From contig NC_081369.1 in NCBI RefSeq assembly GCF_030684315.1, positions 2,532,689 through 2,596,688 of the forward strand: 64,000 nt of DNA. The letters run 5' to 3'. A model generated the notes under the pieces. It searched no databases and was not told where the DNA came from. It saw only the letters and a program-made list of their open reading frames with translations. A program made the position numbers and the translations under genes. The first letter of the stretch is position 1; each line of letters starts with the position of its first letter. This DNA comes from Stegostoma tigrinum. Its lineage: Eukaryota. Below are positions 9,505 to 64,000 of the stretch, in pieces.

Positions 9505-9813
9505 TTGCTGTGGGTAATTCAGCCAAAGTGAATCTGGATCTGACATGAAAAACGGTGTAGAGAGGTTAATCAGTTCTCACACAATGTCCTTTTTCTTCGG
9601 AATTCAACTATTCAAATGTTGTCGCTTCGTGGTGGAGAGAAGGTAATAAAACCTTTCTGTAGGAGGACAGCAAAAAGCTCTTCCGTGTAGTTAGAGGAGA
9701 AGCCAACCTTAAAATTCTGAATGTGACAGTACGGGACGCTGGAACATATCACTGTGCAGTCACATATCAGGATCGAACAATTGGGAAAACTGCTGTGGAA
9801 CTTACTGCATATG
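9505..9813 (+). pseudogene. V-set Ig exon, copy 1 (4 in-frame stops)
   Basis: Bounded by acag| and |gtaagt. Encodes ...QCPFS...SWWRE...ANLKILNVTVRDAGTYHCAVTYQDRTIGKTAVELTAY. Stops at 9546 (TGA), 9558 (TAG), 9567 (TAA) and 9660 (TAG), where copy 2 has CGA, CAG, TCA and CAG. Confidence 0.93.
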
Positions 9814-10017
9814 GTAAGTGTCACCGCAGATAAATACAGAGTCTTAGCTGCTTGAAAACAACTAAGAACAGTGAACAAATCAATTTGTTAGATATAGGCA
9901 TATCATGTAAAATATTTGCAGCTGTTTAACATGAAACGTGTTCAAGAATATGAAGACCTTGATGAATCAGTAACACCTCAAAGTTTGAGATCTACACTGT
10001 ATTAAAAATGAATCAGT

Positions 10018-10985
10018 TGTGGGATTTGGGCATCACTGGCTGGCCAGCATTTATTGCCTGCCCCTAGAGACCCTTGCCCAGATGGCGGTGAGCTGCCTTC
10101 TTGAACCTCTGCAGCCCATGTGCTGTAAATAGATGCACAATGTCATTAGGGGTAAATGGCAGGATTTGACACAGTAACAGTGAAGGAAAAGTGATGTATT
10201 TCCAAGTCAAGATGGTGAGTGGCATTGGAGAAACTTGCGCTGACTGGTGTTCCCATAAGCTTTCTGCCCTTTTACTTTTAGATGTTTGTGATTGTAGGTG
10301 TGAATGGTGTTGTCTCAGGGTTTTTGGTGAACTCCTGCAGTGCATCTTAAAGTTACACAATACCGCTGCTGAGTGCCTGTGATGGAGTGACTGAATGCAT
10401 TGCCTGTCAATGGGCAGCTTTTTACTGGATGGTGTCAAACTTCTTGAGTGTGTTTGGACCTGCTGGCGTGCAGGCAAATGGGGAGCATTCCAACACACTC
10501 CTGACTTGTACCTTGTAGAAGGTGGACAGGCTTTAGGGAGGCAGCGGTTGAGTTACTCACTGCAGTATTCCCAGCCTCTGACCTATGGTTCTATTTATAT
10601 GGCTCCCCCAGTCCTGTTTCTGCTCAATGGTAACCCCCAAGTTGTAGATGGTGGGGAATTCACTGATGAAGGGTCTTCATTTCTGATGAAGGGTCGAGCC
10701 CCGAAACGTCAGCTTTCCTGCTCCTAGGATGCTGCTTGGCATGCTGCATTCATCCAGCTCCATACCTTGTTATCTCGGATTGTCCAGCATTTCTAGTTCC
10801 TATTATCTCTAATTCACTGACGGTGATGCCACTGAATATTAAGGGGTGGATAGTTAGATTGTTTCTTATTGGAGATGGTGTTTGCCTGTGAGCATTTGTG
10901 TGGCCTGCATGCTCATGTCAACTTTTCAGCCCAAACCCAGATGTTGTCCAGTTCTTGCTGCACTTGGTCATGGGTTGCTTCAGTT
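10018..10985 (-). mobile_element. Old CR1-group (L2/Crack-like) LINE 3' part, in V-C1 intron
   Basis: Same family as 28500-29680, 45380-45610 and 62603-63405; diagnostic 3' end ggtgagctgccttcttgaa and cagcatttattgcc. Shared with copy 2, so it predates the duplication. Confidence 0.8.
10667..10810 (+). mobile_element. Penelope family A 3' fragment with 10-bp TSD
   Basis: aattcactga at 10657-10666 and 10811-10820; empty site in the paralog at ~63233; hammerhead-like motif at 10683-10712. Confidence 0.9.
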
Positions 10986-11472
10986 TTATGCATTTGGCTT
11001 TCGGAGGGAAATTGACTGCAATACATTGAAGTTTTTTGTCATTGAATATTGAGTTAGAGAATATCCTCAAAATTACATGTAATGTTCTGCATTTTGAAGT
11101 GATTCATACATCACGAGAAAAGCCAAAGTCTCAGTCCCATCATTTGGATAGATTTTGTTAAATTCCTAGGATCAAGGACCAATTCTTCTCCCTGTTGGCA
11201 AAAGAAAGGTGCAGTATGAAGATTCAATCATGTTTCTATTATTAAGTAGAAACAAATTCTGGAAACCCTTTTTTTCGAAAATGTAGGTGGCATATTGAAA
11301 GGATTTGAGGGGCTTTTTTAAACGTGGTAACGTTGTATAAGTTTCATGTACTGTTCATAGCAACAATGAATGTGACTGTCATGCTGAAATGAATTGATTT
11401 GTTCACTTAAAAGACACTTCTTTGCAGTAGATGCAAAGTTGATTTATCTCTTCTCTGTTATTTACCATTCAG

Positions 11473-11784
11473 CTCCACCAGCTCCTCTGAAAATTGTCTC
11501 TGTGCCATCTGAAGGACTCTTATTCTGCTTCTCTCCAACTCCACTGCAGGACGTCTGAATATTACCCTAAAGCCTTTAACCTTACTTGGCACAAAAATGG
11601 TGCAAACATAATGACAAGATTTGGGAATGAACAGCAAGCAAAACCTGAGGAGCTTTAAAAGTCATCAGCACCATGGAGTTGTGAGAGGCAGTTGGGAGAG
11701 GGACAGTTTGCACATGTCAGGTATATCACTTTTCAAACTCATTTCCAGCAAATGCCTGTTATACTGTTACTGTTGTGAATAAAG
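11473..11784 (+). pseudogene. C1-set Ig exon, copy 1 (frameshifted)
   Basis: ttcag| acceptor. Reconstructed APPAPLKIVS...LQLHCRTSEYYPKAFNLTWHKNG...VISTMEL*...GTVCTCQVYH, showing C1 hallmarks C-x4-F/Y-Y-P, W-x-K-N-G and C-x-V-x-H. Has a +1 frameshift (~11522), a -1 frameshift (~11658), a stop, and a donor apparently mutated to ataaca. Confidence 0.9.
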
Positions 11785-12099
11785 ATAACATTTCATATCA
11801 TTTGGTACATTGAATACACGAGTCAACAGGTTATGTTGAATATGCAGAAAGTGGTGATGACAGTTTGCAAGTGATTACATGAAAAGACAATTATTTGCAT
11901 GTGATTGTGTCAAAGTTGAAATTAGGCCCCATTGTCTGGATTAAAGTTTTCTTTCTTCCTGCTGTTTGGAGCTGATATGCAGTTGTCAATGCACTTTAGC
12001 ACAACGGGAATACAGTCTTCAACATAGGTCATACAATTATTTTGTTCATACACTGACAACTCGCAAAGGGCTGCATGGTCAATGTTCATTCCTGAGAAA

Positions 12100-12665
12100 G
12101 GTCAGGCCACATTTGGAGTATTGCATGCAGTTCTGGTCATTCTACTAGAGGAAAGATATCATTAATTAGAAAGAGTGCAAAAAAGATTTCCCGCAATCCT
12201 ACATGGACTGCAATATTCGAGTTGTAAGGAGAGGCTGGATAGGCTGGGACATTTTTTTACTGGACACATGGGCTCAGGGTGACCTTAGAGAGGTCTATAA
12301 ATTGATGAGAAGCAGCGAAAAGTAGACAGCCAACAGCTTTCCCCCATGGTAGGGGAGTCTAAAACTGGAGAGCATAGGATTAAGGTGAGAGGGAAGGCAT
12401 GCAAAAGAGTCCAGAGGAGCAATTGATTTAAACACAGCAATGAGGATGGTGAATGTTTTGAATGAACTGTCAGAGTTAATGATGGAGGTGATTACAGTTT
12501 TGTCATTTAAGAAACGTTAGGACAGGCACATGGATGGAATTGGTTTGGAGGGATATGGACTAAATACAGGCATGTGGGACTAGTTTAATTGTGAAAACTG
12601 GGCAGCATGGACAAGTTGGGCTGAAGGGCCTGTTTTCATGTTGAAATCTCTATGACTGTATGAAA
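12100..12665 (+). mobile_element. CR1 LINE 3' fragment
   Basis: VRPHLEYCMQFWS motif, CR1 3' UTR and tatgac tail. Confidence 0.88.
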
Positions 12666-13218: not shown

Positions 13219-13332
13219 ATTTTGCTTCTAAAATCAGTGTTATATTGGCTGCTGTTTGTGCTGCTGGAGTATTTGCAATTCTATTATTGGCCTCAATGAT
13301 CACAGCAGGTTTTCTGTTCTTTATCACCAAAG
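13219..13332 (+). pseudogene. Transmembrane exon, copy 1
   Basis: ttacag|...|gtatga, 114 nt, phase 1/1. Encodes DFASKISVILAAVCAAGVFAILLLASMITAGFLFFITK, open and with no charged residue in the hydrophobic stretch. Confidence 0.85.
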
Positions 13333-13925: not shown

Positions 13926-14654
13926 GGTCCCATTGTACCCTGTTTAGAATTGCCAAATACTAGTTGGCTTGCTTTTGGTTTCTTTGGTTTGCTGAAGAAT
14001 ACAAGTGTCAACCATTTTTTTATTTGACTGTCATTTTTATCTCTCTGAATGGGGAAAGAAAAAAATAAATCCAACTCAATGTGAAGATGTGGTGAGGCAA
14101 AGTTCCAATATTCTTTCTTGGTTGATTTTGAAATCTTGTTGAACAATTCAAACTGGGAACCAAAATACTTGTTCCCAATATGTCAAGACAAGCCTTGAAG
14201 ATTTCACCAGCTCTCAGAAACACAATTTCAGTTGAATAAGACCAAAATAAAGGAAAAAGGAAATTGTAGGAAGTTTCACAAGCAGTTGCAACTTTTTTAA
14301 AACAGCCAAAGATGTGTTCAAATATGTAAGCTACGTCAGTTCACTTGCGCTGCTACTTTCAAATATCAATCATGGGTTTGAAGCTGACAAAAAGTTTCAA
14401 TTTTTCTTTTCTTTGGTTTTTAACAAGTGACAGTGTGCTAAATAATTTTTCCACATTGATTACAGACATTATAATCAATGTTGATTAAGTTGGGCTGATG
14501 ACAATTTTGAACGGCAGGTTTCAGGTTATAAGGAGAGATTTGTGTTTTCTTCTTCATTTTTATGCTGTTCCAACTTAACTCATCCATTAGCCAGAGTTCA
14601 GTGATTATGAGTGACTTCTACTGAGCACTTGTACTAAAGAACAGAATATATTGT

Positions 14655-17003: not shown

Positions 17004-17123
17004 AGTATGGCAGATAGCAGGCTGGCTTACCTTGCTCTGAAATTCAATGATTCCTGTACATCATCAAAACCCAAGCACCAAGAAAATAGTCCAGTGAATG
17101 CAGCAGTGAAAAGCAGCTGCTAA
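17004..17123 (+). pseudogene. Terminal cytoplasmic exon with ITIM, copy 1
   Basis: tttttcag| acceptor. Encodes SMADSRLAYLALKFNDSCTSSKPKHQENSPVNAAVKSSC*. LAYLAL (17022-17039) fits the ITIM consensus; PVNAAV (17091-17108) looks like a second motif that has lost its Tyr. Confidence 0.75.
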
Positions 17124-21561: not shown

Positions 21562-23945
21562 ATAGAGATAGTGGCTGCAGATGCTGGGGTCAAGGGATAA
21601 GGCAGAATGGAGCTGGAGGAACACAACAGGGAGCAATCAGAGGGGCAGGAAAGTTGACATTTTTGAAGTTGGGAAATCCTCCCTTCATTTCTGAAGAAGG
21701 GAAACCCTCCCATTTCTGAAGAAGGGAAAACCTGCAAACTGGAGGAGCAGCACCTCGTATTCCACCCCAACAGCCTACAGCCCAATGGCCTAAATGTGGA
21801 TTTTACCAATTTCAAATTCTCTCCACCCCGGCCTCATCCCATGACCAAATCTCTATCCTATCCCCACCTCCTTGATCTGTCACAGCACGTCCATCTTCTC
21901 TCCCACCTCTCTGCCTCTCCCATCGCACTGACCAATCCCCACCATTCCCTACATGCACTCGCTTGTTACCAACCCACCTATCTTCATAGACCCACCCCTC
22001 CTGTCTCCATTTATTTCTGAGCTCCCTTCTCCCCTCCCACCCCCGTTCCTGAAGAACAAAACTTCTTCCTCTCCGGCTGGCCCAACCAGTCCCCTCCACA
22101 AACACCCTCATCTGCTGAACCAAATTCGTCCTTACCCTGAGATAACAAGGTGTAGAGCTGGATGAACACAGCAGACCAAGCAGCATCAGAGGAGCTGGAA
22201 GGCTGACGTTTTGGGCCTAGAACCTTCTTCGTTTTTCTGAAGAAGGGTCTAGGTCCAAAACATCAGCCATGCTGCTCCTCTGATGCTGCTTGGCCTGCCG
22301 TGTTCTTTCAGCACTATACCTTGTTATCTCAGATTCTCCAGCATCTGTAATGCCTACCAACTCGTCCTTCCCCTTAACAATTTCTCCTTTAACTCTTCCC
22401 ACTTCCAACAGATGAAAGGTTTGACCATGAACATCCACATGGGCCCAAACTATGCCTGCCCCTTCATAGGATATGTGGAAGAGACCCTCTTCAGCTGTAA
22501 CATTGGTACTATCCCGCACCTCTTCCTCTGCCAAATTGATGACTGAATCCGGGCTGCCTCATGTTCCCACGAGGAGCTTGAACAGTTCAACAACTCTACT
22601 AACACTTTTCACCCCAACCTTAAATTCACCTGGACCATTTCTTATATCTTCCTCTCTTACCTGGACCTCTCTGTCTCCATCTCTGATGGCCCGCCTCGAA
22701 ACCATTGTCTATCTAGGCCCACTAATTCCCACAGCTACCTAGACTACACCTCCTCTCACCCAACTTCTTGCAAGAATACAATCCCCTTCTACCAAATTCT
22801 CTGCCTCCACTGAGTCTGCTCCTAAGATGGAGCATTCCACTCCCAAACATCCCAGATGTCCTCGTATTTCGAGGACCGCAACATCCCCCGCATTGGTGGT
22901 CAAAAATGCTATCGATCGCATCTCTTGCGTTTCCCACACCTCTGTCCTCGCATTCCCTCCCTGCAACAAAAACAGAGACAGAATCCCTGTTGTCCACACG
23001 AACTTCTGGATTCAATGTATCATCCTCCGCCACTTCTGCCACCTGCAATCTGAACCCACAACCAAGGATAGATGTCCCTCCCCATCTCAATCTGCCTTCT
23101 GTAGGCACCACTCACTCCACGTCTCCCTCGTCTGCTCCACACGCCCTACGAGTCCCAACACCCCCGGCAGCTTTCCTCGCAACTGCAGGAAATGTTACAT
23201 CTGCTCCTACACCGCCTCCCTCACTTCCATCCAGGCACCCAAAAATATATTTCACATCAGACAGATGTTCACCTGCACATCTGCTGATGTAAACTACTGT
23301 ATCGTGACAAGCACCATTTAATATTGGTCTGTTCGTGATAAATGACAACACCCTTGTGCTCCTGAGATGCTGCTTGGCCTGCTGTGTTCAGCCAGCTTCA
23401 CACTTTGTTATCTTGGATTCTCCAGCATCTGCAGTTCCCATTATCGCTGATACACCCTTCAGTCGTAAACCATTTCAACTCCCCCTCCCACTCCCTGGGC
23501 AACATGCTCATCCTCAGCCTCCTCCAGTGTCACAACACTGCCTGGAACCAGGAGGAGTAGTACCGCATATTCCACCTTAGGAGCCTATAACCCAATGGTC
23601 TCAATGTGGACTTTACCAGTTTCAAAATTTCCCCACCCTCGGCCTTATCCCTTGGCCAACCCTCCCCCTCATTCCTGCCACCTTGACCTGACACAACCTA
23701 TCCATCTTCTCTCCTACCTATCTGCTCCTCCCACCTCACTGACCACACCCACCATACCTGTACTCACCCATCACCATTCCATCTACGTTTCCCAGCCTCA
23801 CCCCTCCTCTCTCTATTTATTTCAGAGCTCGCTTCCCCCTCCCCTACTTCAAAAGAACAGCCCCGACCCAAAACGTCAACTTTCCTGCTCATCTGATGCT
23901 GCCTGGCCTGCTGTGTTCCTACAGTTCCACATTGTGTTATCTCTA
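21562..23945 (+). mobile_element. Nested, degraded Penelope family A cluster (RT/GIY-YIG fragments plus palindromic 3' pieces)
   Basis: LVLPLNNFSFNSSHFQQMKGLTMNIHMGPNYAC (22283-22546) and RNCRKCYIC...FTCTSADVNYC (22827-23321); internal palindrome 22137-22347; second tail inserted at 23352-23447. Confidence 0.85.
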
Positions 23946-33717: not shown

Positions 33718-34067
33718 TGAAATTTCGGTACAGAATCCCAAGAGATGACTCTGTGCCATGAAGGGCTGACTCGGGGAAATAGGTTTCCCAAAGCAAACCA
33801 AGGGCGTCACCCACTTGGGGTGGATCCTGCTGAGCGGCCTCCCTTATGCTGCGCCGGGAGGTGCGAGATTGAAAGGAGGCGAACAGTTCATTTACCGCTG
33901 CGCTGGTGAGGGCGGCACAGACTGATCAGGAAAGAACGGATAAAGCCGAGTAGAAGCAGACGAGTATCAGAGATAATGGGAACTGCAGATGCTGGAGAAT
34001 TCCAAGATAATAAAATGTGAGGCTGGATGAACACAGCAGGCCAAGCAGCATCTCAGGAGCACAAAAG

Positions 34068-34097
34068 CTGACGTTTCGGGCCTAGACCCTTCATCAG
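34068..34097 (-). ncRNA. Minimal hammerhead-like motif
   Basis: Exact reverse complement of CTGATGAAGGGTCTAGGCCCGAAACGTCAG. Confidence 0.7.
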
Positions 34098-36902
34098 AGA
34101 GGGGGATGGGGAGAGGGAACTGGAATAAATAGGGAGAGAGTGGGAGGCGGACCGAAGATGGAGAGTAAAGAAGATAGGTGGAGAGAGTGTAGGTGGGGAG
34201 GTAGGGAGGGGATAGGTCAGTCCAGGGAAGACGGACAGCTCAAGGAGGTGGGATGAGGTTAGTAGGTAGATGGGGGTGCGGCTTGGGGTGGGAGGGAGGG
34301 ATGGGTGAGAGGAAGAACCGGTTAGGGAGGCAGAGACAGGTTGGACTGGTTTTGGGATGCAGTGGGTGGGGGGGAAGAGCTGGGCTGGTTGTGTGGTGCA
34401 GTGGGGGGAGGGGACGAACTGGGCTGGTTTAGGGATGCAGTAGGAGAAGGGGAGATTTTGAAACTGGTGAAGTCCACATTGATACCATATGGCTGCAGGG
34501 TTCCCAGGCGGAATATGAGTTGCTGTTCCTGCAACCTTCGGGTGGCATCATTGTGGCACTGCAGGAGGCCCATGATGGACATGTCATCTAGAGAATGGGA
34601 GGGGGAGTGGAAATGGTTTGCGACTGGGAGGTGCAGTTGTTTGTTGCGGACTGAGCGGAGGTGTTCCGCAAAGCGGTCCCCAAGCCTCCGCTTGGTTTCC
34701 CCAATGTAGAGGAAGCCGCACCGGGTACAGTGAATGCAGTATACCACATTGGCAGATATGCAGGTGAACCTCTGCTTAATGTGGAATGTCATCTTGGGGC
34801 CTGGGATGGGGGTGAGGGAGGAGGTGTGGGGACAAGTGTAGCATTTCCTGCGGTTGCAGGGGAAGGTGCCGGGTGTGGTGGGGTTGGAGGGCAGTGTGGA
34901 GCGAACAAGGGAGTCACGGAGAGAGTGGTCTCTCCGGAAAGCTGACAGGGGAGGGGATGGAAAAATGTCTTGGGTGGTGGGGTCGGATTGTAAATGGCGG
35001 AAGTGTCAGAGGATAATGCATTGTATCCGGAGGTTGGTAGGGTGGTGTGTGAGAACGAGGGGGATCCTCTTGGGGCGGTTGTGGCGGGGGCGGGGTGTGA
35101 GGGATGTGTTGCGGGAAATACGGGAGACGCGGTCAAGGGCGTTCTCGATCACTGTGGGGGGAAAGTTGCGGTCCTTGAAGAACTTGGACATCTGGGATGT
35201 GTGGGAGTGGAATGTCTTATCGTGGGAGCAGATGCGGCAGAGGCGGAGGAATTGGGAATAGGGGATGGAATTTTTGCAGGAGGGTGGGTGGGAGGAGGTG
35301 TATTCCAGGTAGCTGTGGTAGTCGGTGGGCTTGAAATGGACATCAGTTACAAGCTGGTTGCCTGAGATGGAGACTGAGAGGTCCAGGAAGGTGAGGGATG
35401 TGCTGGAGATGGCCCAGGTGAACTGAAGGTTGGGGTGGAAGGTGTTGGTGAAGTGGATGAACTGTTCGAGCTCCTCTGGGGAGCAAGAGGCGGCGCCGAT
35501 ACAGTCATCAATGTACCGGAGGAAGAGGTGGGGTTTGGGGCCTGTGTAGGTGCGGAAGAGGGACTGTTCCACGTAACCTACAAAGAGGCAGGCATAGTTG
35601 GGGCCCATGCAGGTGCCCATGGCCACCCCCTTAGTCTGTAGAAAGTGGGAGGAGTCAAAAGAGAAGTTGTTGAGTGTGAGGACGAGTTCGGCTAGGCGGA
35701 TGAGAGTGTCGGTGGAGGGGGACTGGTCGGGCCTGCGGGACAGGAAGAAGCGGAGGCGGCCGCCGCATCTGCTCCCACGATAAGACATTCCACTCCTGCA
35801 CATCCCAGATGTCCAAGTTCTTCAAGGACCGCAACGTTCCCCCCACAGTGATCGAGAACGCCCTTGACGGCGTCTCCCGTATTTCCCGCAACACATCCCT
35901 CACACCCCGCCCCCGCCACAACCGCCCCAAGAGGATCCCCCTCGTTCTCACACACCACCCTACCAACCTCCGGATACAACGCATTATCCTCCGACACTTC
36001 CGCCATTTACAATCCGACCCCACCACCCAAGACATTTTTCCATCCCCTCCCCTGTCAGCTTTCCGGAGAGACCACTCTCTCCGTGACTCCCTTGTTCGCT
36101 CCACACTGCCCTCCAACCCCACCACACCTGGCACCTTCCCCTGCAACCGCAGGAAATGCTACACTTGTCCCCACACCTCCTCCCTCACCCCCATCCCAGG
36201 CCCCAAGATGACATTCCACATTAAGCAGAGGTTCACCTGCACATCTGCCAATGTGGTATACTGCATCCACTGTACCCGGTGCGGCTTCCTCTACATTGGG
36301 GAAACCAAGCGGAGGCTTGGGGACCGCTTTGCAGAACACCTCCGCTCAGTCCGCAACAAACAACTGCACCTCCCAGTCGCAAACCATTTCCACTCCCCCT
36401 CCCATTCTCTAGATGACATGTCCATCATGGGCCTCCTGCAGTGCCACAATGATGCCACCCGAAAGTTGCAGGAAAAGCAACTCATATTCCGCCTGGGAAC
36501 CCTGCAGCCATATGGTATCAATGTGGACTTCACCAGTTTCAAAATCTCCCCTTCTCCTACTGCATCCCTAAACCAGCCCAGTTCGTCCCCTCCCCCCACT
36601 GCACCACACAACCAGCCCAGCTCTTCCCCCCCACCCACTGCATCCCAAAACCAGTCCAACCTGTCTCTGCCTCCCTGACCGGTTCTTCCTCTCACCCATC
36701 CCTCCCTCCCACCCCAAGCCGCACCCCCAGCTACCTACTAACCTCATCCCACCTCCTTGACCTGTCCGTCTTCCCTGGACTGACCTATCCCCTCCCTACC
36801 TCCCCACCTACACTCTCTCCACCTATCTTCTTTACTCTCCATCTTCGGTCCGCCTCCCCCTCTCTCCCTATTTATTCCAGTTCCCTCTCCCCATCCCCCT
36901 CT

Positions 36903-36932
36903 CTGATGAAGGGTCTAGGCCCGAAACGTCAG
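36903..36932 (+). ncRNA. Minimal hammerhead-like motif
   Basis: CTGATGAAGGGTCTAGGCCCGAAACGTCAG, intact. Confidence 0.7.
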
Positions 36933-37029
36933 CTTTTGTGCTCCTGAGATGCTGCTTGGCCTGCTGTGTTCATCCAGCCTCACATTTTATTATCTTCGAA
37001 GCAGACTAGTACCACCTGCAACGAAAGCT

Positions 37030-45612: not shown

Positions 45613-47235
45613 TTGAAGAGCAGGTGTGCATGCTGGAATGGATAGAGATAGAGGAAGCTGATGTGCTGAAAATTTTGTCAAACATTAAGATTGACAAGTC
45701 GCCAGGTCCGGACCAGATTTGTCCTCGGCTGCTTTGGGAAGCGAGAAATGAAATTGCTTCACCACTTGCGAAGATCTTTGCATCCTCGCTCTCCACTGGA
45801 GTCGTACCTGAGGACTGGAGAGAGGCAAATGTAATTCCTCTCTTCAAGAAAGGAAATAGGGAAATCCCCGACAATTACAGACCAGTAAGTCTCACGTCTG
45901 TCGTCTGCAAGGTGTGAGAAAGGATTCTGAGGGATAGGATTTATGGCCATATGGAAGAGCATGGCTTGATCGAATACAGTCAACACGGCTTTGTGAGGGG
46001 TAGGTCATGCCTCACAAACCTTATCGAGTTTTTTGAGGATGTGACTAGAAAAGTTGATGAGGGTCGAGCTGTGGATGTGGTGTATATGGACTTTAGTAAG
46101 GCATTTGATAAGGTTCCCCATGGTAGGCTCATTCAGAAGGTCAGGTAGAATGGGATACAGGGGAACTTAGCTGCTTGGATACAGAATTGGCTGGCCAACA
46201 GAAGACAGTGAGTGGTAGTAGAAGGAAAATATTCTGCCTGGAAGTCAGTGGTGAGTAGGGTTCCACAGGGCTCTATCCTTGGGCCTCTACTGCTTGTAAT
46301 TTTTATTAATGACTTGGATGAGAGGATTGAAGGATGGGTCAGCAAGTTTGCAGACGACACAAAGGTCGGAGGTGTTGTTGACAGTATAGAGGGCTGTTGT
46401 AGGCTGCAGTGGGACATTGACAGGATGCAGAGATGGGCTGAGAGGTGGCAGATGGAGTTCAACCTGGATAAATGCGAGGTGATGCATTTGGGAAAGTCGA
46501 ATTTGAAAGCTGAGTACAGGATTAAGGATAGGATTCTTGGCAGTGTGGAGGAACAGAGGGATCTTGGTGTGCAATACATAGATCCCTCAAAATGGCCACC
46601 CAAGTGGACAGGGTTATGAAAGCATATGGTGTTTTGGCTTTCATTAACAGGGGGATTGAGTTTAAGAGTCATGAGATCTTGTTGCAGCTCTATAAAACTT
46701 TGGTTAGACCGCACTTGGAATACTGCGTCCAGTTCTGGTTGCCATATTATAGGAAAGATGTGGATGCTTTGGAGAGGGTTCAGAGAAGGTTTACCAGGAT
46801 GCTGCCTGGACTGGAGGGCTTATCTTATGAAGAGAGGTTGACTGAGCTCAGTCTCTTTTCATTGGAGAAAAGGAGGAGGAGAGGGGACCTAATTGAGGTA
46901 TACAAGATAATGAGAGGCATAGATAGAGTTGATAGCCAGAGACTATTTCCCAGGGCATAAATGGCTAGCACGAGGGGTCATAGTTTTAAGCTGGTTGGTG
47001 GAAAATATAGAGGGGATGTCAGAGGCTGGTTCTTTACACAGAGAGTTGTGAGAGCATGGAATGCGTTGCCAGCAGCAGTTGTGGAAGCAAGGTCATTGGG
47101 GTCATTTAAGAGACTGCTGAACATGCATATGGTCACAGAAATGTGAGGGTGCATACATGAGGATCAATGGTCGGCACAACATTGTGGGCTGAAGGGCCTG
47201 TTTTGTGCTGTACTGTTCTATGTTCTATGTTCTAA
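45613..47235 (+). mobile_element. CR1 LINE (1.6 kb of ORF2 RT) inserted into an older L2/Crack-like LINE (45380-45610 and 47236-47350)
   Basis: KSPGPDQI, NYRPVSLTS, QHGFVRGRSCLTNL, YMDFSKAFDKVPH, VPQGSILGP, KFADDTK; (ttctatg)n tail. Confidence 0.96.
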
Positions 47236-47354: not shown

Positions 47355-48516
47355 CACGGGAGGCTGATGAGCAAGGTGAGGGCCCATGGTGTTCGAGGTG
47401 AGCTACTGGCTTGGATGGAGGATTGGCTGTCTGACAGAAGGCAGAGAGTTGGGATAAAAAGCTCTTTTTCAGAATGGGAACCAGTGACGAGCGGTGTCCC
47501 GCAGTGTTCAGTGTTGGGGCCGCAGCTGTTCACTTTATATATTAATGATCTGGATGAAAGGACTGAAGGCATTCTGGAGAATTTTGCCAATGATACGAAG
47601 AAGTTGGACAGGCAGGTGTCCTGAGGAGGTGGGGAAGCTGCAGAAAGATTTAGACAGTTTAGGAGAGTGGTCCAGGAAATGGCTGATGAAATTCAGCATG
47701 GGCAAATGTGAGGTTTTGCACTTTGGAAAAATGAATACAGGCCTGGACTATTTTCTAAAGGGTGAGAAAATTCGTAAAACAGAAGTACAAAGGGATCTGG
47801 GAGTGTTGGTCCAGGATTCTCTAAGGGTTAACTTGCAGATAGAGTCTGTGAGTAAGAAAGTGAATGTAACATTGTCATTTATCTCAAGAGGGTTGGAATA
47901 TAAAAGCAGTGATGCGCTGCTGAGAATTTATAATGCTCTAGTTGGGCCCCATTTAGAATACTGTGTCCAATTTTGGGCCCCACACCTCAGGAAGGACACA
48001 CTAGCCCTGGAGCGTGTCCAGCGGAGATTCATGCGGATGATCCCTGGAATGGTAGGTTTAATGTTTGATGAACGGCTAAGGATCCTGGGGTTATATTCAT
48101 TAGAGTTTAGAAGGTTGAGGGGAGATCTAATAGAAACTTACAAGATAATGTATGGCTTAGAAGGGGTGGATGCTGGGAAGTTGTTTCCATTGGGCGGGGA
48201 GGCTAGGACCCGTGGGCACAGCCTTAAAATTAGAGGGGGTAAATTTAAAATGGAAATGAGATGACATTTCTTCAGCCAGAGAGTGGTGGGCTTGTGGAAT
48301 TCATTGCCATGGAGTGCAGTGGAGGCCGGGACAATGGATGCCTTCAAGGCAGAGATTGACAAATTCTTGATCTCAGAAGGAATCTAGGGCTCTGGGGAGA
48401 GTGCAGGGAAGTGGAGTTGAAATGCCCATCAGCCACGATTTAAATAGCGGAGTGGACTTGATGGGACGAATGGCCTTACTTCCACGCCTATATCTTATGG
48501 TCTTATGGTCTTATGA
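47355..48516 (+). mobile_element. CR1 LINE, 5'-truncated
   Basis: [16 protein letters not shown] and PHLEYCVQFWAP; (cttatggt)n tail. Confidence 0.95.
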
Positions 48517-48601
48517 CCTTGTTGTCAAGAGAAGTCACCTCTCCCTCATGCTTGGTTATTTTCTTTTTCCCAGAGAGTCAAGGAGCATGGAAATAAATCC
48601 T

Positions 48602-50108
48602 AGATAACAAAGTGTGGAGCTGGATAAACACAGCAGGCCAACCAGCATCTCAGGAGCACAAAAGCTGATGTTTTAGGCCTAGACCTTCATCAGAGAGGGG
48701 GATGGAGAGAGGGAACTGGAATAAATAGGGAGAGAGGGGGAGGCGGACCGAAGATGGAGAGAAAACAAGATAGGTAGAGAGGAGAGTATAGGTGGGGAGG
48801 TAGGGAGGGGATAGGTCAGTCCAGGGAAGATGGACAGGTCAAGGAGGCGGGATGAGGTAGTAGGTAGAAAATGGAGGTGCGGCTTGAGGTGGGAGGAAAG
48901 TATGGGTGAGAGGAAGAATAGGTTAGGGAAGCAGAGACAGGCTGGGCTGGTTTTGGGATGCACTGGGGAAGGGGAGATTTTGAAGCTTGTGAAGTCCACA
49001 TTGATACCATTGGGCTGTAGGGTTCCTAAGCGGAATATGAGTTGTTTTTCCTGCAACCTTCAGGTGGCATCATTGTGGCACTGCAGGAGGCCCATGATGG
49101 ACACGTCGTCTGAGGAATGGGAGGGGGAGTTGAAATGGTTTGCGACTGGGAGGTGCAGTTGTTTGTTGCAAACTGAGCGGAGGTGTTCTGCAAAGCGGTC
49201 CCCAAGCCTCCGCTTGGTTTCCCCAATGTAGAGGAAGCCACACCGGGTGCAATGGATACAATATACCACATTGGCAGATGTGCAGGTGAACATCTGTTTG
49301 ATATGGAAGGTCATCGTGGGGCCAGGGATGGGGGTGATGGAGGAGGTGTGGGGGCAAGTGTAGCACTTCCTGCGGTTGAAGAGGAAGGTGCCAGGTGTGG
49401 TGGGGTTGGAGGGGAGTGTAGAGTGGACAAGGGAGTCACGGAGAGAGTGGTCTCTCCGGAAGGCAGACAAGGGTGGGGGTGGAAAAATGCCTTGGGTGGT
49501 GTGGTCGGATTGTAGATGGCAGAAGTGTCGGAGAATGATATATTGTACCCGGAGCTTGGTGGGGTGGTATGTGAGGATGACTGGATCCTCTGGAGGCGGT
49601 TGTGGCTGGGGCGGGGTGTGAGGGATGTGTTGCGGGAAATATGGGAGACCTGGGCAAGGGCGTTCTCGACCACTGCGGAGGGGAGAGTTGCGGTCCTGGA
49701 AGAACGTGGACATCTGAGATGAGAGTCGAGTGGAATGCCTCATCCTGGGAGCTGATGCGGAGGAATTGGGCATCGGGGATGGAATTTTTGCAGGAGGGTG
49801 GGTGGGAGGAGGTGTATTCTAGGTAGCTGTGGGAGTCAGTGGGCTTGAAATGGACATCAGTTTCTAGCTGGTTACCTGTGATGGAGGCTGATAGGTCCAG
49901 GAAGGTGAGGGATGTGTTGGAGATGGCCCAGGTGAACTTGAGGTTGGTGTGGAAGGTGTTGGTGAAGTGTTGAACTGTTTGAGCTCCTCTGGGGAGCAAG
50001 AGGCGGCGCCGATACAGTCATCAATGTAATGGAGGAAGATGTGGGGTTTGGGGCCTGTGTAGGTGCGGAAGAGAGACTGTTCCACATAACCTACAAAGAG
50101 GCAGGCAT
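48602..50108 (-). mobile_element. Penelope family A, 5'-truncated
   Basis: RT (FLHYIDDCIG) and GIY-YIG (VYCIHCTRCGFLYIGET) with frameshifts; the 3' end lacks the ~35-nt tail. Confidence 0.94.
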
Positions 50109-50159
50109 ATCCTTCAGTCCAAAATGTCCACTCTGACCATTTTTCCAAAAAACTTCCAC

Positions 50160-51889: not shown

Positions 51890-54560
51890 AAACATAGAAA
51901 ATAGGAACAGTTGTAGGCCATTGTAGCTTTTGATCCTGCTCTGCTAGTCATGGCTGAGCATCCTACTCAGTGGCTTGTTCCCACTTTAACCCTCAGAACT
52001 ATATTTATTTTCTTCTTGGAAACATTCAGTGTTTTGGCCTGAATTGCTTTCCGAGACAGCAAATTCCACAAGCTCACCAGTCTGTGAGTAAAAAATGTTT
52101 TCCTCATCTCAGTCCTAAATGGCCTAGCCCTTGTCCTTAAACTGTTACCCCTGGTTCTGGATTGCCCAGCCATTGAGAACACTCTTCCTGCATTTACGTT
52201 GGTCATCCTGTTAGAGTTTTATTGGTTTCTGTGAGATCTTCTCTCATTCTTCAAAACACCAGTGAATTTCATTTTAACCTATCCGTTCTGTTCATATATG
52301 TCAGCCCTGCCATCCCAGGAAGCAACCTGGTAAATCTTTGTTGTACTCCCTCCATAACCAGAACATCTGTTGTCAGATAAGGATTCCGAAACTACCCACA
52401 ATAATCCAGTTGTGATCTCAGCAAGACCCAGTGCAATTTCAGCAAGGCATCCCTGCTCCTGTACTCAAATCCTATTGCTATGAAGGCCAGCATCCCATGT
52501 GCCTCTTCACTTCCGGCTGCACCTGCATGCTTACTTTCAAAACCGGTTTCATTGCTTCGTCCACCTTTCCCAACATACTCCCATTCAGATAATTATCGGT
52601 TGTTCTGTTTTTGCATTCAAACTGGATAGCCTCCTATTTATCAACATTATCCTTCATCTACTTTGCATTTTTGCCCACTCACTCAACTCCAAATCACATT
52701 GAAATGCATTCGCTTCTGCCTCACAGCTCACTGTCCCACCCAGCTTCATACCATAAGATCATAAGACCATAAGACAAAGGAGTGGAAGTAAGGCCACTTG
52801 GCCCATCGAGCCCACTACACCATTTAAATCATGGCTGATGGACATTTCAACTCCACTTCCCTGCGCTCTCCCCGTAGCCCTTAATTTCTTGTGAGATCAA
52901 GAATTTATCAATCTCTGCCTTGATGACATTTAATGTCTTGGCCTCCACTGCGGTCTGTGGCAATGAATTCCACAGGCCCACCACTCTCTGGCTGAAGAAA
53001 AGTCTCCTCATTTCCATTTTAAATTTACCCGCTCTAATTCTAAGGCTGTGCCCACGGGTCCTAGTCTCCCCGCCTAGCGGAAACAACTTCCCAGCATCCA
53101 CCATTTCTAAGCCATACATTATCTTGTAAGTTTCTATCAGATCTCGCCTCAACCTTCTAAACTCTAATGAGTACAATCCCAGGATCCTCAGCCATTCATT
53201 GTATGTTAAACCTACCAGTGTGGAGATATGGCATTTAAGTTTCCTCATCTAAATCCTTAATAGATATTATGAATAAATGGGGTCCAAGCACTGATCCCTG
53301 CAGTACCATTCTGGTCACTGGCTGCCAATCAAAAATGACCTGTTTGTTTTTGCCGTTGTTTCCTGTCTGCAAGCCCGTTCTGAAACTGGGACAATACATA
53401 GCGCCAATCCCATGTGCTTTAATTCTACACACTAATTCTTCTGCAGGGTATTTTGAATGCTTTGTCAAAACCCAAGTAAACTATATCTATTGCATCCTTA
53501 CCAACTCTAAATGTTGCATTCTTGAAACATTCCAGCCAATTTGACCAGCATGATTTCCCTTTCATAAATCCATGCTAACTGATTCTGTCCAATCCTGTCA
53601 ATATTTTCTGGTTTAAGCTAACTAGTGTAAAATTCAATGTTTTCTCTCTACCTCCTTTTCTCAAAAGGTAGGGTTACCTTAGTAACCTTCAAACATAGGA
53701 ATTGTTCCAGAATCTCTCGAATCTATAAAAATGACGATCAATTTTCTCTATTTAGATTCAAGCCCAGAGTTTCAGAATACATCCATTATCTCATGGGCTG
53801 CTTTGTTAAGTATGCTGAGGTGCAGATTAACTGGTGCTGGGATTTGTTGGCCTTTAATCCCATCAATTTTCCCAACATCCCCCTGTTAAAACGGATTTCC
53901 TTCAGATGCTCCCTTTTATGTCTTACCCAGCATTTTACGCATATTATTTGTGTCATCTGTTATGATGACAGTACCAAAATGTAGTTAATTGGTCAGCCAC
54001 CTCTTTATTTCACATTATAACTTCTTCTGTTTCTCATTGTAGGTGATTTGTTTTCCTTACTCCTTTTTTACCCCATTCCTTATACATTTCAGGAGCTTTT
54101 GCAATTAGTTTATATGTTCCCTGCAAGCTTACCCTGATACCCTGTTTTCCCTTCAACCAGTTGTTTGGTCCTCTTTTGCTGAAATGCTCCCATTTTTCAG
54201 GTCTGCTACTCATTTTTGCCAATTTGTTCGTCCCTTCAATGGAAACAGCATATCCCTAATATCCCTTGTGAGCCATGGCAGGGCCAGCTTTCTCATTTTA
54301 TTTTGTGCAAGACAAGAATGAACAACAGTTGCAGTTCTTTCAGGTGCTCTCTAAATGTTTGTCTTCCCTTTAAGTCAATGTTTCCCAAGTTATTGTAACC
54401 TGCCTGCACCTCATACCATCATAATTTCCTCTATATAGGTTTGGCCCCCAGACTCAGTATCGACTCTGTCACTCTCCATCTTAATAAAGATTTCTATCAC
54501 TGAGTTCTTCATTCTTCCACAAGAGGCCTCTTACAGTTAGGTTGCCAATTACCCCCATCT
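51890..54560 (-). mobile_element. Old CR1 LINE with a younger CR1 (52750-53222) nested in it
   Basis: Minus ORFs TRGNSLR...FFTHRLVSLWN, LRILGLYSLEFRRLRRDLIETYKI and VLQGSVLGPHLF; (ccataaga)n and (catagaaa)n tails. Confidence 0.88.
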
Positions 54561-54632: not shown

Positions 54633-54679
<47 letters not shown>

Positions 54680-55700: not shown

Positions 55701-55824
55701 ACCTCGCAAGGGCAGGACTTACATAATTAATGTTAAGGCCTGGGTAGTATTGTCCCTGGGTACCTTTGTATCTAAGATGGTGCTATGATTGCTGACTTGT
55801 AAACATTTCCTGTACTCACGCATT

Positions 55825-56955
55825 TCATAAGGTTCCACATGATAGGCTCATTCAGAAAGTAAAGAGGCATGGGATTCAGGGAAATTTGGCTATCTGGATA
55901 CAAAACTGGCTCTCCAATAGAAACAGAGGATGGTAGTAGATGGAAGGTGTTCCGCCTGGAACCCTGTGACCAGTGCTGTTCCGGAGGATCTGTTGTGACC
56001 TCTGCTCTTTGTTATCTTTATAAATGACTTGGATGTGGAAGTGGAAGGGTGGGTTAGTAAGTTTGCTGATGACACAGAAGTTGGTGGAGTTGTGGACAGC
56101 GTAGAAGGCTGTTGTAGGTTGCAACAGGATGCAGAGCTGGGCAAAGAAGTGGCAGATAGAATTCAATCCAGAAAAGTGTGAAGTGGTTCATTTTGGAGGG
56201 TTGAATTTGAATGCAGAATACAGGGATAATGGCAGGATTCTTGGCAGTGTGGAGAAACAGAGGGATATTGGGGTCTACATCCATAGATCCCTCAACGTTG
56301 CTATCCAGATTGATAGTTTGTAAAGAAGGCATATGGTATGTTGGCTTTCATCAGCAGGGCAATTGAGTTTAAGAGCCGTGAGGTTATGTTGCAGTTCTCT
56401 AAAACCCTGGTTCGATCACACTAGGAATATTGAGCTCAGTTTTGCTCAACTTATTGTAGGAAAGATGTGGAAGCTTTAGAGAGGGTGCAGAGGAGATTTA
56501 CTATGATGCTGCCTGGACTGGAGGGCAGGTCGTATGAGGGAATGTTGAGGGAGCTCGGGATTTTTTTCATTGGAGCGAAGAAGGATGAATGGTGACTTGA
56601 TAGAGGTGTATGAGAATATGAGAAGCATCGACAGAGTGGATAGTTAGAAACTTTTTCCCTGGGGCGAAATGACTGTTACGAGGGGACATAATTTTAATAT
56701 GATTGGAGGAAGGTATAGGGGAGATGTCAGAGGTAAGATCTTGACACAGAGATTGGTGGGTAGGATGCGCTGCCAGCAGTGGTAGTGGAGTCAGGTACTT
56801 TAGAGACTTTTAAGCAACTCTTGGATAGGCACATGGAGGATAGTAAAATGTAGGGTATGCAGGGTAGGTTGATCTCGGTAGGAGAATGGATTGGCAGACC
56901 ATTGTGGGCCAAAGGGCCTGTACTGTGCTGTACTGTTCTATGTTGTATGTTCTGT
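55825..56955 (+). mobile_element. CR1 LINE, 5'-truncated
   Basis: Homologous to 46108-47235 (KVPHDRLIQKV...KFADDTE); ttctatg tail. Confidence 0.92.
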
Positions 56956-58336: not shown

Positions 58337-58374
58337 CAGCTTCATGCAAATTCCCAATGATTGTCCCTCTACTG
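58337..58374 (+). other. Candidate decayed leader exon of receptor copy 2
   Basis: Ends at ctg|gtgaat and aligns codon-wise with 44670-44633 (-). The implied ancestral peptide resembles MLHLKFxxIVxL, but here the ATG position reads CAG and the frame is broken. Confidence 0.3.
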
Positions 58375-59160: not shown

Positions 59161-62021
59161 AAAGTTCCTTCACAAACATAATTGTTTAGCTTACTGATAC
59201 TGTTATTGAGCATCTCCCCTCGGAAATGTTTTAGATTTCAATCACATATATTTTGCCTTTGAGCTGAAGAGTTTTTGGCTCTCTTTCCACTCCAGGATTC
59301 ATGTTAAATAATCTGAACACCATTGCAGCAGATCACATTTCTGCAGTCAGTCCTTTCACATTTATTGATCAGTTGAAATCAAGAAAGCACATGCATGACT
59401 GGACGAGGAGACACCATCTGTTTAAAAGTGGGGTCACGTTCTCATTCAAATTTGATGGCTTAACAGTTCGACTCAAATTTCAACAGTTTCTAGAAAAGCC
59501 AAGCATTGCTACAACTCAGCGACATCTGGAAGGCCACACATCACAAACATAATGCTGATGACAGATCCACGTGTTCTCCAGTAATACGGGATTCCTTAAA
59601 TGATAAAATACAGCTTACATATTCTTGGCTGGAGAACTTAAATTTGAATTCCGCCCAAGAATACCTTGATTCTGACTTAATTGCACTATTAGCACTTGGT
59701 CTCTTGAACATAGTTATATGACAGTCATGATGTGTTTTTTTTTACCTGATGTGTACATCGCTGATCAGATAATTTATTGCCCACAGTTAGCTGTCTGTAA
59801 GAAACTGGTGGTGAGCCATTTTGAGGAACTGGTAAAGTCAATGTGGTTCAGGCCCATCCAATGTGCTGCTTAGAAGGGGATAGGTAATTTGGATCCAGGA
59901 GCAACTCAGATGATTACAATTCCAAGGTGGGTGATCCATATCATGACTGAGGACTGCCTATCTTCTATCCAAGGAGTATGATTTCATATCATGATAGAAC
60001 ATTTCCACTGCTCATTACCTTGACAAATGCAGCTGTAACAGAACCCTGGAGAATGGCATTGTCCACGTCAAAGCTGCACATTTGATCTGAAAACACATTC
60101 TTTTAAATTATCATTTTACCTCATGGATAAAAATAGCACTTCAGAAGGAAACAAACTGATAGTCATAAACAGGGATTTGCAAAGACAGTGAGTGAATATG
60201 ATGAACACAAATAAATGGAAAACCCGTTACATATTTAAGCTGAAAACCTCTATTTCATACTAATCTTACTTCTGAACAGCTCTGTGAGAAAAGGACTTCA
60301 ACAAATTGAAACAGTCACTCATTTACAGCCTTATACATGTTCCAAGGCCCGTGTAATGCCATGGAGTTGATGGATGCCTGAGACTGAAAATACTCAAAGC
60401 GGTTTCCTCACGTTGAGATCATGTCTCAACACAATGAAGGTAGGACATTGGAAAGAAGGTTCTGAAACACCAGCATAATGAGGTAAACAATTAATTCCAC
60501 AACCAGTTTGTATGTCACCTCGACTAAAGAAAAAAATGTAACTGTTTACAATAATTAGAAAAATACTTAAACACAGCAAAATAACTAACCCAACATACAT
60601 ATTAAGTATGTCTTGATTTTAAATGTGTGATTCATGTTAATAATTTGAGAAGTCCTAGAATGATCTTTGCAGTAAACTGGTGTCTTCCTAGCTCTCATTA
60701 AATTGCAAATATTTTCACTGCACTTCTTGGTGAAAAGATGTTATATAGCCAAGAATCATTGAGAACAACTTGCAGAGAGATTGCATGAATGAAATGCTGT
60801 CAAAGATGCGATGCTATTATGTAGAGGCTAGAAAAAATAATAAGAAAGGGGATTTCAGCAGGTAAATCTAACATTGCTGCTCAGTTCTTTCAGATATTGG
60901 AGTGAGAGGTTTATAATTGTGCCCCACTTTCCTGCTCGCATTCCAGGATGTAGCAGTAGCTTTGCCTCCATGTCCTCCAAATTGCAACAGTTACAGTGGG
61001 CTGTTTCTTCACAATAGTTTGTTGTAAAAATTAACAATGCTGAAAGAAACCAAAAGCACTTGGCTGTGCCAGCCTAGCAAGGAGCCAACAAATCAAATCG
61101 ACCAATCGAGGATTTAGTGCAAAGCTTTGCAGATTCAATGCACATCCAGAAAGAAACTTGTGAAAGGGTCAAAGGTGTCTCTGATATCTGCTCAGGCAAT
61201 GGGTTCCAGATAGCGACCACGCTCTGGGATAATCTGTTTCATCATCTTCCTGTTCAGCTTTTCCATTAACCTCTTTAAATCTATAAACTCCGAATCACCG
61301 ATCTCACCATGAAGGCCCGTGAACACCTCCTCATTTACTATGTCTCGGCCCATCTCAATTTTGTGCATCCCAACTAAATTCCCTCTCAGACCCATCCTGT
61401 TTCAATGGCAGAAACATCATCCCATCTGATCAAGTCTCAACAACAACCATCGAAATACCATCCAAACTTTCTCGAGTGTCGTCATTTTTGTGGTGGTTTC
61501 CGGTTACAAAAACAGATTGTATTTGAGAAGGCAGGCTTTTTTCTTCACTCAACAAATGCTCATGTGCTCATTGACCCACACATACGCATATGATGAAATT
61601 GGAGATCGAGACGAACATTTAACAAGCCTTTGTCTCTCCTGTTCTTGGTCACAACTGATGGTCTCAGATTTTCCCTGCCAATATGTCTGCGTGTCATTCG
61701 CGATGGGATGTCTATCTGCTGTGCATCTTGTGTGCAGGTACACATTTCTTTTGCTGAGTATTAACTGTTCGCGATAATAAATGGATATTTTTCATTAATT
61801 TTGTCTTTGTTTCAAGTCAAGTGTTCCCAGAACTCATTTGTCACTTGGGCCACGTGAGGAAAGTATGATATTCAATTCGCACAATAGTTTAAAAATGGGA
61901 GAATTAGTCGAAGAGAAAAATGTGGTCAATTGCTGTTGCATCAATGCCCTGGAAGAATGATGTTATTTGGGTGGTGCAGACTGTCCTTCTTGTTTAACCT
62001 GTGTGTTTCCTTGGTTGACAG

Positions 62022-62333
62022 CTGCTGCTGTGGGCAATTCAGCCAAAGTGAATCGGCACCTCACACGAAAAACGGTGCAGAGAGGTTCATCAGCTCGTCT
62101 ACACTGCCCTTTCTCCGCCAAATTTGATTGTTCAAATGTTACCGCTTACTGGTGGAAAGAAGATAATCAAACCTTTCTGCAGGAGGACAGCAAAAAGTTC
62201 TTCCGTGTAATTAGAGGAGAAGCCTCCCTTAAACTCCTGAATGTGACAGTCCGGGATGCAGGAACGCATCACTGTGCAGTCACACATCAGAATATAAATG
62301 TTGGGAAAGCTGCTGCGCAACTTATTGTGTATG
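62022..62333 (+). CDS. V(J)-type Ig exon, receptor copy 2 (open)
   Basis: gacag|...|gtaagc, 312 nt, phase 1/1. Encodes AAVGNSAKVNRHLTRKTVQRGSSARLHCPFSAKFDCSNVTAYWWKEDNQTFLQEDSKKFFRVIRGEASLKLLNVTVRDAGTHHCAVTHQNINVGKAAAQLIVY, with B-strand Cys, C-strand Trp and D-x-G-x-x-x-C. Confidence 0.88.
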
Positions 62334-62602
62334 GTAAGCGTCACCACGGATAAACATGGAGTCCTACCTGCTAAAAAAAACAACAGCAAACAAAGATATT
62401 TATTAGATATAGATAAATACTTGAAAATATTTGCACTAATTTAAAATTTCTAAACAACAACCACCTAAATACCTTCGGAACTTTCTCTAGTGTTGTCATT
62501 TTTGTGGTGGTTTCTGATTACCAAAGTATTCAAAAATATGGAGACCTTGATCACTTAGTATCACCTCAAGGTTTGAGATCTTCACTGCATTAAAAATAAA
62601 TC

Positions 62603-63405
62603 TCTTGTGGGATGTGGGCATCAGTGGCTGGCCAGCATTTATTGCCTGTCCCTAGTGACCCTTGACAAGGTGGTGGTGAGCTGCCTTCTTGAACCGCTGC
62701 AGTCTATGTGCTGGAAGTAGACTCATAATGTGATTAGAGGGAAATTACACAACTTAGACCCAGTGTCAGTGAAGGAGCAGTGATATATTACCAAGTCAGA
62801 ATTGTCAGTAGCTTGGGATGGTTGTGTTCCCACATCCTTGCTACCCTTTCCTTTCAAGATAACAGCGAAAGTGAGTGTGAAAGGTGCTGTCTCAGGATCT
62901 TTGGTGAATTTCTGCAGTGCATCTTCATGTTACACACTGCTGCTACTGAGTGTCTGTGGTGGAGTGACTGAAAGTGGTGCCAGTCAAGTGGGCAGCTATT
63001 TACTGGATGGTATCAAACTTCTTGAATACTTTCGGACTTGCAGGCGTGCAGGCAAATGGGGACCATTCCAATGCACTGTTGACTTGTGCCTTGTAGATGG
63101 TGGGCAGGCTTTGGGGAGTCAGCAGTTGCTTACATGCTGCAGCATTCCCAGCGTCTGACCTACAGTTCTTTTATATGGCTCGCCCAGTTCTGTTTCTACT
63201 CAATGGTAACCCCCAAAATGTAGATAGTGGGGAATTCACTGATGGTGATGCCACTGAATATTAAGAGGTGGATGGTTAGGTTGCTTCATAGCAGCGATGG
63301 TGTTTGCCTGGCATTTGTATGGCCTGCATATTCCTGGCAACTTTTCAGCTCAAACCCGGATGCTGTCCAGTTCTTATTGCACTTGGACATGGGTTGCTTC
63401 AGTTT
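62603..63405 (-). mobile_element. L2/Crack-like LINE fragment, paralogous to 10018-10985
   Basis: Same position and boundaries in the V-C1 intron. Confidence 0.8.
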
Positions 63406-63899
63406 AATGCATTTAAGTTTTGGAGGGAAAGTGATTGTAATACTTTAATTTTTTTTCTTTGTATTTGAATATGGAGTGACAGAATAAATATCCTTGAAAT
63501 TTTGAGTAGTATTCTGCATTTTGAAATGTTCCTTGCCTCATGAGAGAATCCAAAGTCTTAGCCCTATCACTTGGATGGATTTTGTAAAATTCTTTGGATC
63601 CAGGTCAAATTCCTCATCCCATTTGCAAAGGAAAGATGCAGTGTGACAATTCAATCATGTTTCTATAATGAAGTAGAAACAAATTTTGGAAACTCCTCTC
63701 TCCAAAAAGTAGATGGTATATTGAAAGGATTTGAGGGGTTTTTTGAATGTGGTAAACATAATATTGGTTTCATACACTGTTCATTGCAACAATTAATACA
63801 ACTGTCATGCTGAAATAAGTTGTTTTGTTCACTTAAAAAGTACTTTTTTTGCAGAAGATACAAAATTGATTTATGTAATTTGTGTTATGTACTATTCAG

Positions 63900-64000
63900 C
63901 CCCACCAGCTCCTCTGAAAATCGTCTCTAAGCCATCCAAAGACCTTTTATCTCCTTCTCTCCGGCTTCAGTGCAGGACATCAGACTTTTACCCAAAAGAC
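63900..64000 (+). CDS. C1-set Ig exon, receptor copy 2 (5' part, open)
   Basis: attcag| acceptor, phase 1; APPAPLKIVSKPSKDLLSPSLRLQCRTSDFYPKD, truncated by the window end. Confidence 0.88.

Follow-up and report, generated by a model that had tools for sequence, protein, structure and literature searches.

Two paralogues in Stegostoma tigrinum, a pseudogene and a second gene open in its 5' part, probably from a large chondrichthyan family of paired V-C1 receptors

In receptors that carry immunoreceptor tyrosine-based inhibitory motifs (ITIMs), binding of a ligand leads to Src-family phosphorylation, recruitment of SHP-1 or SHP-2 and inhibition. This is the route by which SIRP-alpha exerts its inhibitory signalling, and the ectodomains of SIRP alpha, beta and gamma are built as V-C1-C1 (PMC12975943; papers are cited here for those of their sections that were covered). 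Other systems of related build are NKp30, which has one V domain (PMC12272517), the PRARP and tetrapod VJC1 genes with their non-rearranging VJ-C1 architecture (PMC10751288), and the elasmobranch UrIg and UrIg2 genes, in which a VJ in a single exon is followed by C1 domains (PMC12227049). With these we compare a stretch of 64,000 nucleotides from Stegostoma tigrinum (NCBI RefSeq assembly GCF_030684315.1, contig NC_081369.1, positions 2,532,689 to 2,596,688 of the forward strand), hereafter the window, which holds, both on the plus strand, a pseudogene (copy 1) and a second gene of which the 5' part is present and open (copy 2). The explanation that we favour, and consider probable, is that the two belong to a large family of chondrichthyan membrane receptors that do not rearrange and have two domains, a short V/I-like one and a C1, and that are likely paired immune receptors of inhibitory and activating kinds.

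Within the window copy 2 is open throughout and has canonical splice sites. Its leader exon (61683 to 61737) runs from an ATG to a GT donor in phase 1, its distal immunoglobulin (Ig) exon (62022 to 62333) is open between canonical AG and GT sites and scores 38.6 bits with the Pfam V-set and 30.9 bits with the Pfam I-set, and of its C1 exon, recognised by blastn, tblastn and splice sites, the first 33 codons (63900 to 64000) are present and open up to the window edge that ends it. Among sequencing runs matching the copy-2 leader and V no RNA run appeared, a result that speaks neither for nor against expression. The nearest database proteins to the copy-2 V domain, 79-80% identical to it, are the zebra-shark models XP_048402851 and XP_059507783 (P0001 and P0002), which were automatically named SIRP-beta-1-like and SHPS-1-like at NCBI. 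Each has one Pfam V-set and one C1-set domain in an intact V-C1-transmembrane (TM)-tail protein, and these models thereby bear out the non-rearranging V-C1-TM architecture with tyrosine motifs that an initial annotation, made from the letters of the window, had proposed. The same annotation had reported two paralogues about 52.5 kb apart, and indeed a self-comparison of the window yields one duplicated block, 7987 to 11572 (copy 1, from the upstream region to the start of C1) against 60308 to 63998, in four blastn pieces of 75-81% identity, with V exons that start at 9505 and 62022, a distance of 52,517 bases. At the DNA level the two V exons share 82% identity, and their ratio of non-synonymous to synonymous change (dN/dS) of 0.58, from 34 non-synonymous and 18 synonymous changes, is uninformative because one of the lineages, that of copy 1, is dead.

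Copy 1 is a pseudogene of seven recognisable exons, which were located by tblastn with the intact relatives P0001, P0002 and P0004 as guides. The donor of its leader exon (9137 to 9191) reads T|GC against G|GT in copy 2, its distal, short V/I-like exon (9505 to 9813) has in-frame stops at 9546, 9558, 9567 and 9660, and in its C1-set exon (11473 to 11784) the frame changes twice, there is a stop at 11682, and the donor reads AT instead of GT. The TM exon (13219 to 13332), placed by tblastn with the same three guides and by its splice sites, is uncharged and of the inhibitory type, and it is followed by a short juxtamembrane cytoplasmic exon (about 14048 to 14091), recognised by a weak tblastn match, its translation and its donor, the start of which is approximate and the expected acceptor of which has no AG. 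The next cytoplasmic exon (16750 to about 16869, with an approximate end and an expected donor without GT) encodes the ITIM LTYAVL and a tyrosine 23 residues further and is 78% identical to residues 367-403 of P0002, and the last exon (17004 to 17123), with 78% identity to residues 407-443 of that protein, encodes the ITIM LAYLAL at 17022 to 17039, an asparagine in place of the fourth tyrosine, and the stop codon. The V, single C1, uncharged TM and LAYLAL tail that had been proposed for copy 1 are accordingly all present as exons, but they belong to a pseudogene and not to a receptor that can be reconstructed. Likewise, LAYLAL and the decayed second motif, which has no tyrosine, do both stand in the last exon, but two cytoplasmic exons had been overlooked, and the tail of copy 1 therefore has four tyrosine positions and not two. 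An assembly error behind the lesions was considered and is rejected, since the contigs of 4 of 4 DNA runs, from two samples of one study, one of which may be the source of the window itself, do not differ over V and C1 and show neither a deviating letter nor a gap over 9100 to 10046 and 10966 to 11900.

The family to which both copies belong is large. Profiles made from 32 members score family domains mostly at 75-138 bits and non-members at no more than 57, a separation that is circular for the members used, and 85 V-C1 units (isoforms included) among the proteins collected pass them, as do 99 proteins by a looser rule, which confirms the multigene family that had been predicted. The 53 family proteins that are named (48 of the 99 from the looser rule, of which the remaining 51 are without names, and 5 cluster members) are all chondrichthyan and come from 17 species, sharks and rays with the chimaera Callorhinchus milii included in the count, so the family is not as narrowly lineage-specific as proposed. 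Of the birth-and-death evolution that had been suggested for it, gene death is seen in copy 1, beside the multigene family itself. The C1 domains of the family form one clade with a support of 98 in the C1 tree, while pairwise ectodomain identity goes down to about 39% (76 of 192 for P0002 against P0024). Within each multi-member assembly the contig size is identical across members, at 99,651,266 for 10 Heterodontus proteins and 66,547,297 for 7 from Heptranchias, with 7 from Mobula hypostoma alike, and this points to one chromosome and one family cluster per genome; some family proteins of the same assembly furthermore have near-consecutive accessions. The gene model P0003 (XP_060693506, Hemiscyllium ocellatum) joins two members of different subfamilies, which suggests that distant subfamilies adjoin on the chromosome. 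There are also V-only forms, among the horn-shark-like and Mobula models P0022, P0181 and P0182, in which C1 is skipped and a TM and tyrosine tail are kept, and additional copies of the tyrosine module occur in P0132, P0168 and P0024. Outside the cartilaginous fishes, the supplement of PMC10751288 gives, for about 7.3-12.5 Mb of chromosome 12 (NC_041405.2) of the reedfish, a cluster in which auto-names mixed as in the family (SHPS-1-like, tapasin-related, CD276-like and NCR3LG1-like) alternate with killer-cell lectin-like genes and that, judged by gene names, is a candidate for the bony-fish counterpart of the shark family.

Family members have two kinds of TM and tail. In the tyrosine-tailed type the TM is uncharged and the tyrosines are spaced 23/14/23, as in P0002, P0168, P0032, P0028 and the chimaera protein P0024, and this spacing recurs from the zebra shark to Callorhinchus; copy 1 is of the same type. 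In the arginine type the TM has an arginine close to its outer end and, at the inner end, an acidic or amide residue together with a histidine or tyrosine, and the tail is short. Among the 37 of 73 non-redundant units that can be classified there are 11 arginine-TM short-tail and 26 tyrosine-tailed ones, and the notion of a solely inhibitory family, as first put forward, is not borne out. The two types are mixed on the ectodomain tree, where the signalling type switches 9 times, compared with 9.6 on average over 500 shuffles of the labels, and where a single clade of the 11 arginine-TM units is rejected by the approximately unbiased test (p-AU 6e-14). Indeed near twins of opposite type are found both in Heptranchias (P0169 and P0177, 171 of 191 residues identical) and in Mobula hypostoma (P0182 and P0179, 120 of 125 identical over leader and V). 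It is this mixing across the ectodomain tree that makes a paired-receptor family likely, rather than one of inhibitory receptors only, and the general hallmark of paired receptors, similar ectodomains with opposite kinds of TM and tail in one cluster, is seen here at the level of sequence. The FcR-gamma-coupled paired receptors (LILR/PIR, NKp46, GPVI, FcalphaR and Xenopus XFL) likewise comprise a class with an uncharged TM and ITIM tail and a class with an N-terminal arginine, whereas their ectodomains are of C2/I type, unlike the V and C1 of the family. In receptors of Xenopus and mammals an N-terminal NxxR in the TM is linked with association to FcR-gamma (PMC2413239), and NxxR is found in 3 of the 11 arginine TMs of the family.

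Several points weigh against the family of paired receptors that we favour. The other 8 of the 11 arginine TMs have no Asn of NxxR, 36 of the 73 V-C1 units, being unclear or incomplete, were left out of the comparison of types, and P0067, counted as inhibitory, has no predicted TM. Since the TM and tail of copy 2 fall outside the window, the signalling type of this copy cannot be read from it. The relatives are furthermore all predicted gene models, some of them faulty (as in the N-terminus of P0002 and the chimeric P0003), and the trees come from quick searches with SH-aLRT support only (a Shimodaira-Hasegawa-like approximate likelihood ratio test). Finally, about half of the 99 family proteins are without names, and bony-fish members may be among them.

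The distal domain bears on a proposed link to antigen receptors. The initial annotation had given the V exon a J-like G strand of its own, and the G-strand peptides IGKTAVELTAY and VGKAAAQLIVY are indeed in place at 9780 to 9812 and 62300 to 62332 (plus strand), but the J-like motif is gone in the window copies, which together with P0001 and P0002 have lost both glycines of GxG and one residue in the register of the family. The consensus J motif is FGxGTx(L/V)xV (PMC11599192), and a G strand of the form GxG[TSN]x[LVI]x[VI] is present in 61 of the 85 family units; the family is therefore apparently of the joined-VJ type, although the window copies do not display the motif. As had been stated, no recombination signal sequence (RSS) accompanies the V exons, a relaxed scan having given 3 matches in the 64 kb, none of them close to either exon, and with the G strand inside the V exon the Ig and TCR arrangement of a V split from J with flanking RSS is not found. 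The domain scores above both the V-set and the I-set Pfam cut-offs, with 54-60 residues between the cysteines in 75 units. A predicted model of the copy-2 distal domain (mean predicted local distance difference test, pLDDT, 90) consists of eight strands, with C'' missing, and the C' and C'' pair of a canonical V-set domain is thus not seen in it. Titin I-set domains stand at the top of the distal-domain fold searches, in a broad tie (Z 12.9, root-mean-square deviation (rmsd) 2.2, 88 aligned). NKp30, SIRP and antibody V domains are not among the best 50-60 matches of the V-only sequence and fold searches, which excludes nothing, and VNAR domains are weak matches among those listed.

[quoted passage not shown] We give this little credence: the distal domain has an I-set-like fold without a predicted C'' strand and no Phe or Trp ahead of GxG, the C1 domains do not group with Ig C domains, the family lies off the chromosome of the major histocompatibility complex (MHC) in the sawfish, and a better candidate, UrIg2, is already in print. 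UrIg and UrIg2 are likewise elasmobranch genes, but they have three or nine and more C1 domains where the family has one, are located in the MHC or an antigen-receptor complex and are expressed in liver and gill, and the covered sections of PMC12227049 describe no ITIM tail for them. The antigen-receptor-like VJ and the relevance to receptors before RAG that the initial annotation had claimed are hence weakly supported, given the short distal domain, the missing C'', the I-set tie and a C1 tree that resolves no link of the family to Ig or SIRP.

That nothing here is new, and that the family consists of the shark NCR3/NKp30 or VJ-C1/PRARP genes already in print, seems improbable to us. [quoted passage not shown] The single V of NKp30, however, differs from the V and C1 of the family, which also has inhibitory members, and the name NCR3-like does not occur among the 53 proteins that are named. 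Furthermore, NKp30 is MHC-linked and the sawfish NCR3-like genes are on the MHC chromosome 34, with listed genes ending at 19.83 Mb (supplement of PMC10751288), whereas the sawfish family member is on a contig of 53.95 Mb, a comparison that holds for this one species and assumes the same assembly. The VJ-C1 genes to which PMC10751288 refers are placed there in tetrapods, and PRARP and VJC1 are set beside the family here by description. No description of the V-C1 family was found in the literature searched, although Kinlein 2021, Ohta 2019, Fu 2019, Flajnik 2012, Dornburg and Yoder 2022 or their supplements may already cover it. The supplement text of the elephant-shark genome paper (PMC3964593), which may have other supplementary files, has no mention of SIRP, ITIM or NKp30 in the part covered, and none of the terms searched is present in the covered main text of the bamboo-shark single-cell paper (PMC11372145).

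The two-domain ectodomain in turn recalls B7-H6, which is, to our knowledge, a ligand and has not been described as a paired-receptor cluster, and the family might be considered an expansion not of receptors but of ligands, B7-H6-like (NCR3LG1) or otherwise of B7 type. B7-H6, likewise of V and C1-type domains, is first in the fold search with a two-domain model (Z 16.6, rmsd 3.5, 183 aligned), in a tie with ICOS-L and PD-L2 (Z 16.0-16.6), CD276 comes first in the sequence search of solved structures, and several members bear the auto-names NCR3LG1-like or CD276-like. The fold ties, however, reflect the rod shape of a V-C tandem, the distal domain is shorter than the V domains of B7-H6 and other B7 proteins, and four-tyrosine tails with arginine-TM partners fit paired receptors and not B7 ligands, so that we regard such an expansion as quite improbable.

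The nearest working analogue of the family is SIRP-alpha/beta, a resemblance in the way of working that may or may not extend to descent. Both have a joined V with, in most units of the family, a J-like G strand, a C1-set domain, inhibitory and activating pairs (in the family predicted ones) in a cluster, and an inhibitory tail of four tyrosines in the same order, spaced 23/14/23 in the family against 25/17/26 in the turtle, the fourth having been lost in copy 1. A true chondrichthyan SIRP family by descent, with one C1 instead of two and likely binding CD47 or a relative, is compatible with the explanation that we favour, to which it adds descent and a ligand, and we hold it to be possible, if on balance doubtful. 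In its favour, a profile alignment runs to turtle SIRP-alpha end to end with one C1 skipped and the four tyrosines in register (E-value 1.2e-23), and the tail profile gives 34 bits for turtle SIRP-alpha and 51 bits for a lungfish SIRP-like protein, each above 200 of 200 motif-preserving shuffles, a test made without unrelated four-tyrosine controls such as Siglec, LILR and CD300. The top two ESM Atlas clusters for P0169 are named SIRP-alpha (0.96), but CD33-like clusters were returned at 0.94 too, and many NCBI auto-names read SHPS-1-like. Against descent stands the V-C1-C1 ectodomain of SIRP, since in the window a single C1 exon separates V from TM, and the family has in addition a shorter distal domain and far more members. 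The V of SIRP-alpha reaches just 13 bits on the family V profile, its C1 domains, at 32 and 52 bits, score no higher than C1 domains from outside the family otherwise do (up to 57), and the C1 tree, with one turtle SIRP-alpha and one lungfish SIRP-like protein included, leaves family and SIRP in a polytomy. The presumably activating members do have a charged TM residue, but it is an outer-TM arginine, whereas SIRP-beta uses DAP12 (PMC12975943). The lungfish protein P0147 (XP_043913177), the one with the four-tyrosine tail of 51 bits, is together with P0144 a C1-repeat protein in a clade of their own.

Apart from the two copies the window consists of repeat fragments. The V and C1 profiles found no third copy across the 64 kb, an activating TM exon was looked for in the window and none was found, and no other host gene appeared there in a listing of long open reading frames or by tblastn with proteins of up to 620 residues. 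An inverted pair (34000 to 35238 and 35762 to 37000, 98.6% identical over 1239 bases) lies inside retroelement sequence which we take to be Penelope-like and whose open reading frames resemble a reverse transcriptase and a GIY-YIG endonuclease, with related copies at 3 to 1209, 22359 to 23303 and 48595 to 50109. Decayed fragments resembling long interspersed nuclear elements (LINEs), presumably of CR1/L2 type, are found at 6064 to 6834, 46101 to 47233, 47488 to 48515, 52752 to 53248 and 55820 to 56953, and LINE-like sequence is also fused to the ends of several NCBI models of the family (P0066, P0077 and P0127). The window segments 2731 to 2849 and 4491 to 4696 match the mis-predicted N-terminus of the zebra-shark model P0002 at 56-85%. 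Copy 1 may, as far as such matches go, occupy the site orthologous to that of a zebra-shark gene which is still open.

If the family works as its tails suggest, ligand binding by the inhibitory form, to which copy 1 and the nearest genes of the zebra shark belong, would lead to Src-family phosphorylation of two tyrosine pairs, each 23 residues apart, which by analogy with ITIM biology would recruit SHP-1 or SHP-2 and damp leukocyte activation. For the arginine-TM short-tail siblings the receptors of PMC2413239 would suggest signalling by way of an ITAM adaptor, FcR-gamma for example. The ligand would most likely be a self cell-surface protein, the mimicry of which by pathogens may drive duplication, exchange of signalling exons and gene death. 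It is moreover conceivable, though we think it rather unlikely, that the family represents the chief complex of paired receptors in cartilaginous fishes and is sister to the tetrapod SIRPs, predating the split of chimaeras and sharks; were this true, the origin of the SIRP checkpoint would move to the jawed-vertebrate ancestor, and sharks would have dozens of germline self-recognition receptors made of antigen-receptor-type domains. The window alone contributes just a dead copy and a gene fragment. In the literature searched, however, no large cluster of inhibitory and activating Ig receptors of this build is described for sharks, and the family is hidden under at least eight unrelated NCBI auto-names. 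The combination, in sharks, rays and a chimaera, of a SIRP-like four-tyrosine tail with a C1 domain and arginine-TM partners offers concrete genes for dating the design of the checkpoint, and these genes also bear on what restrains the natural killer (NK)-like and myeloid cells of sharks.

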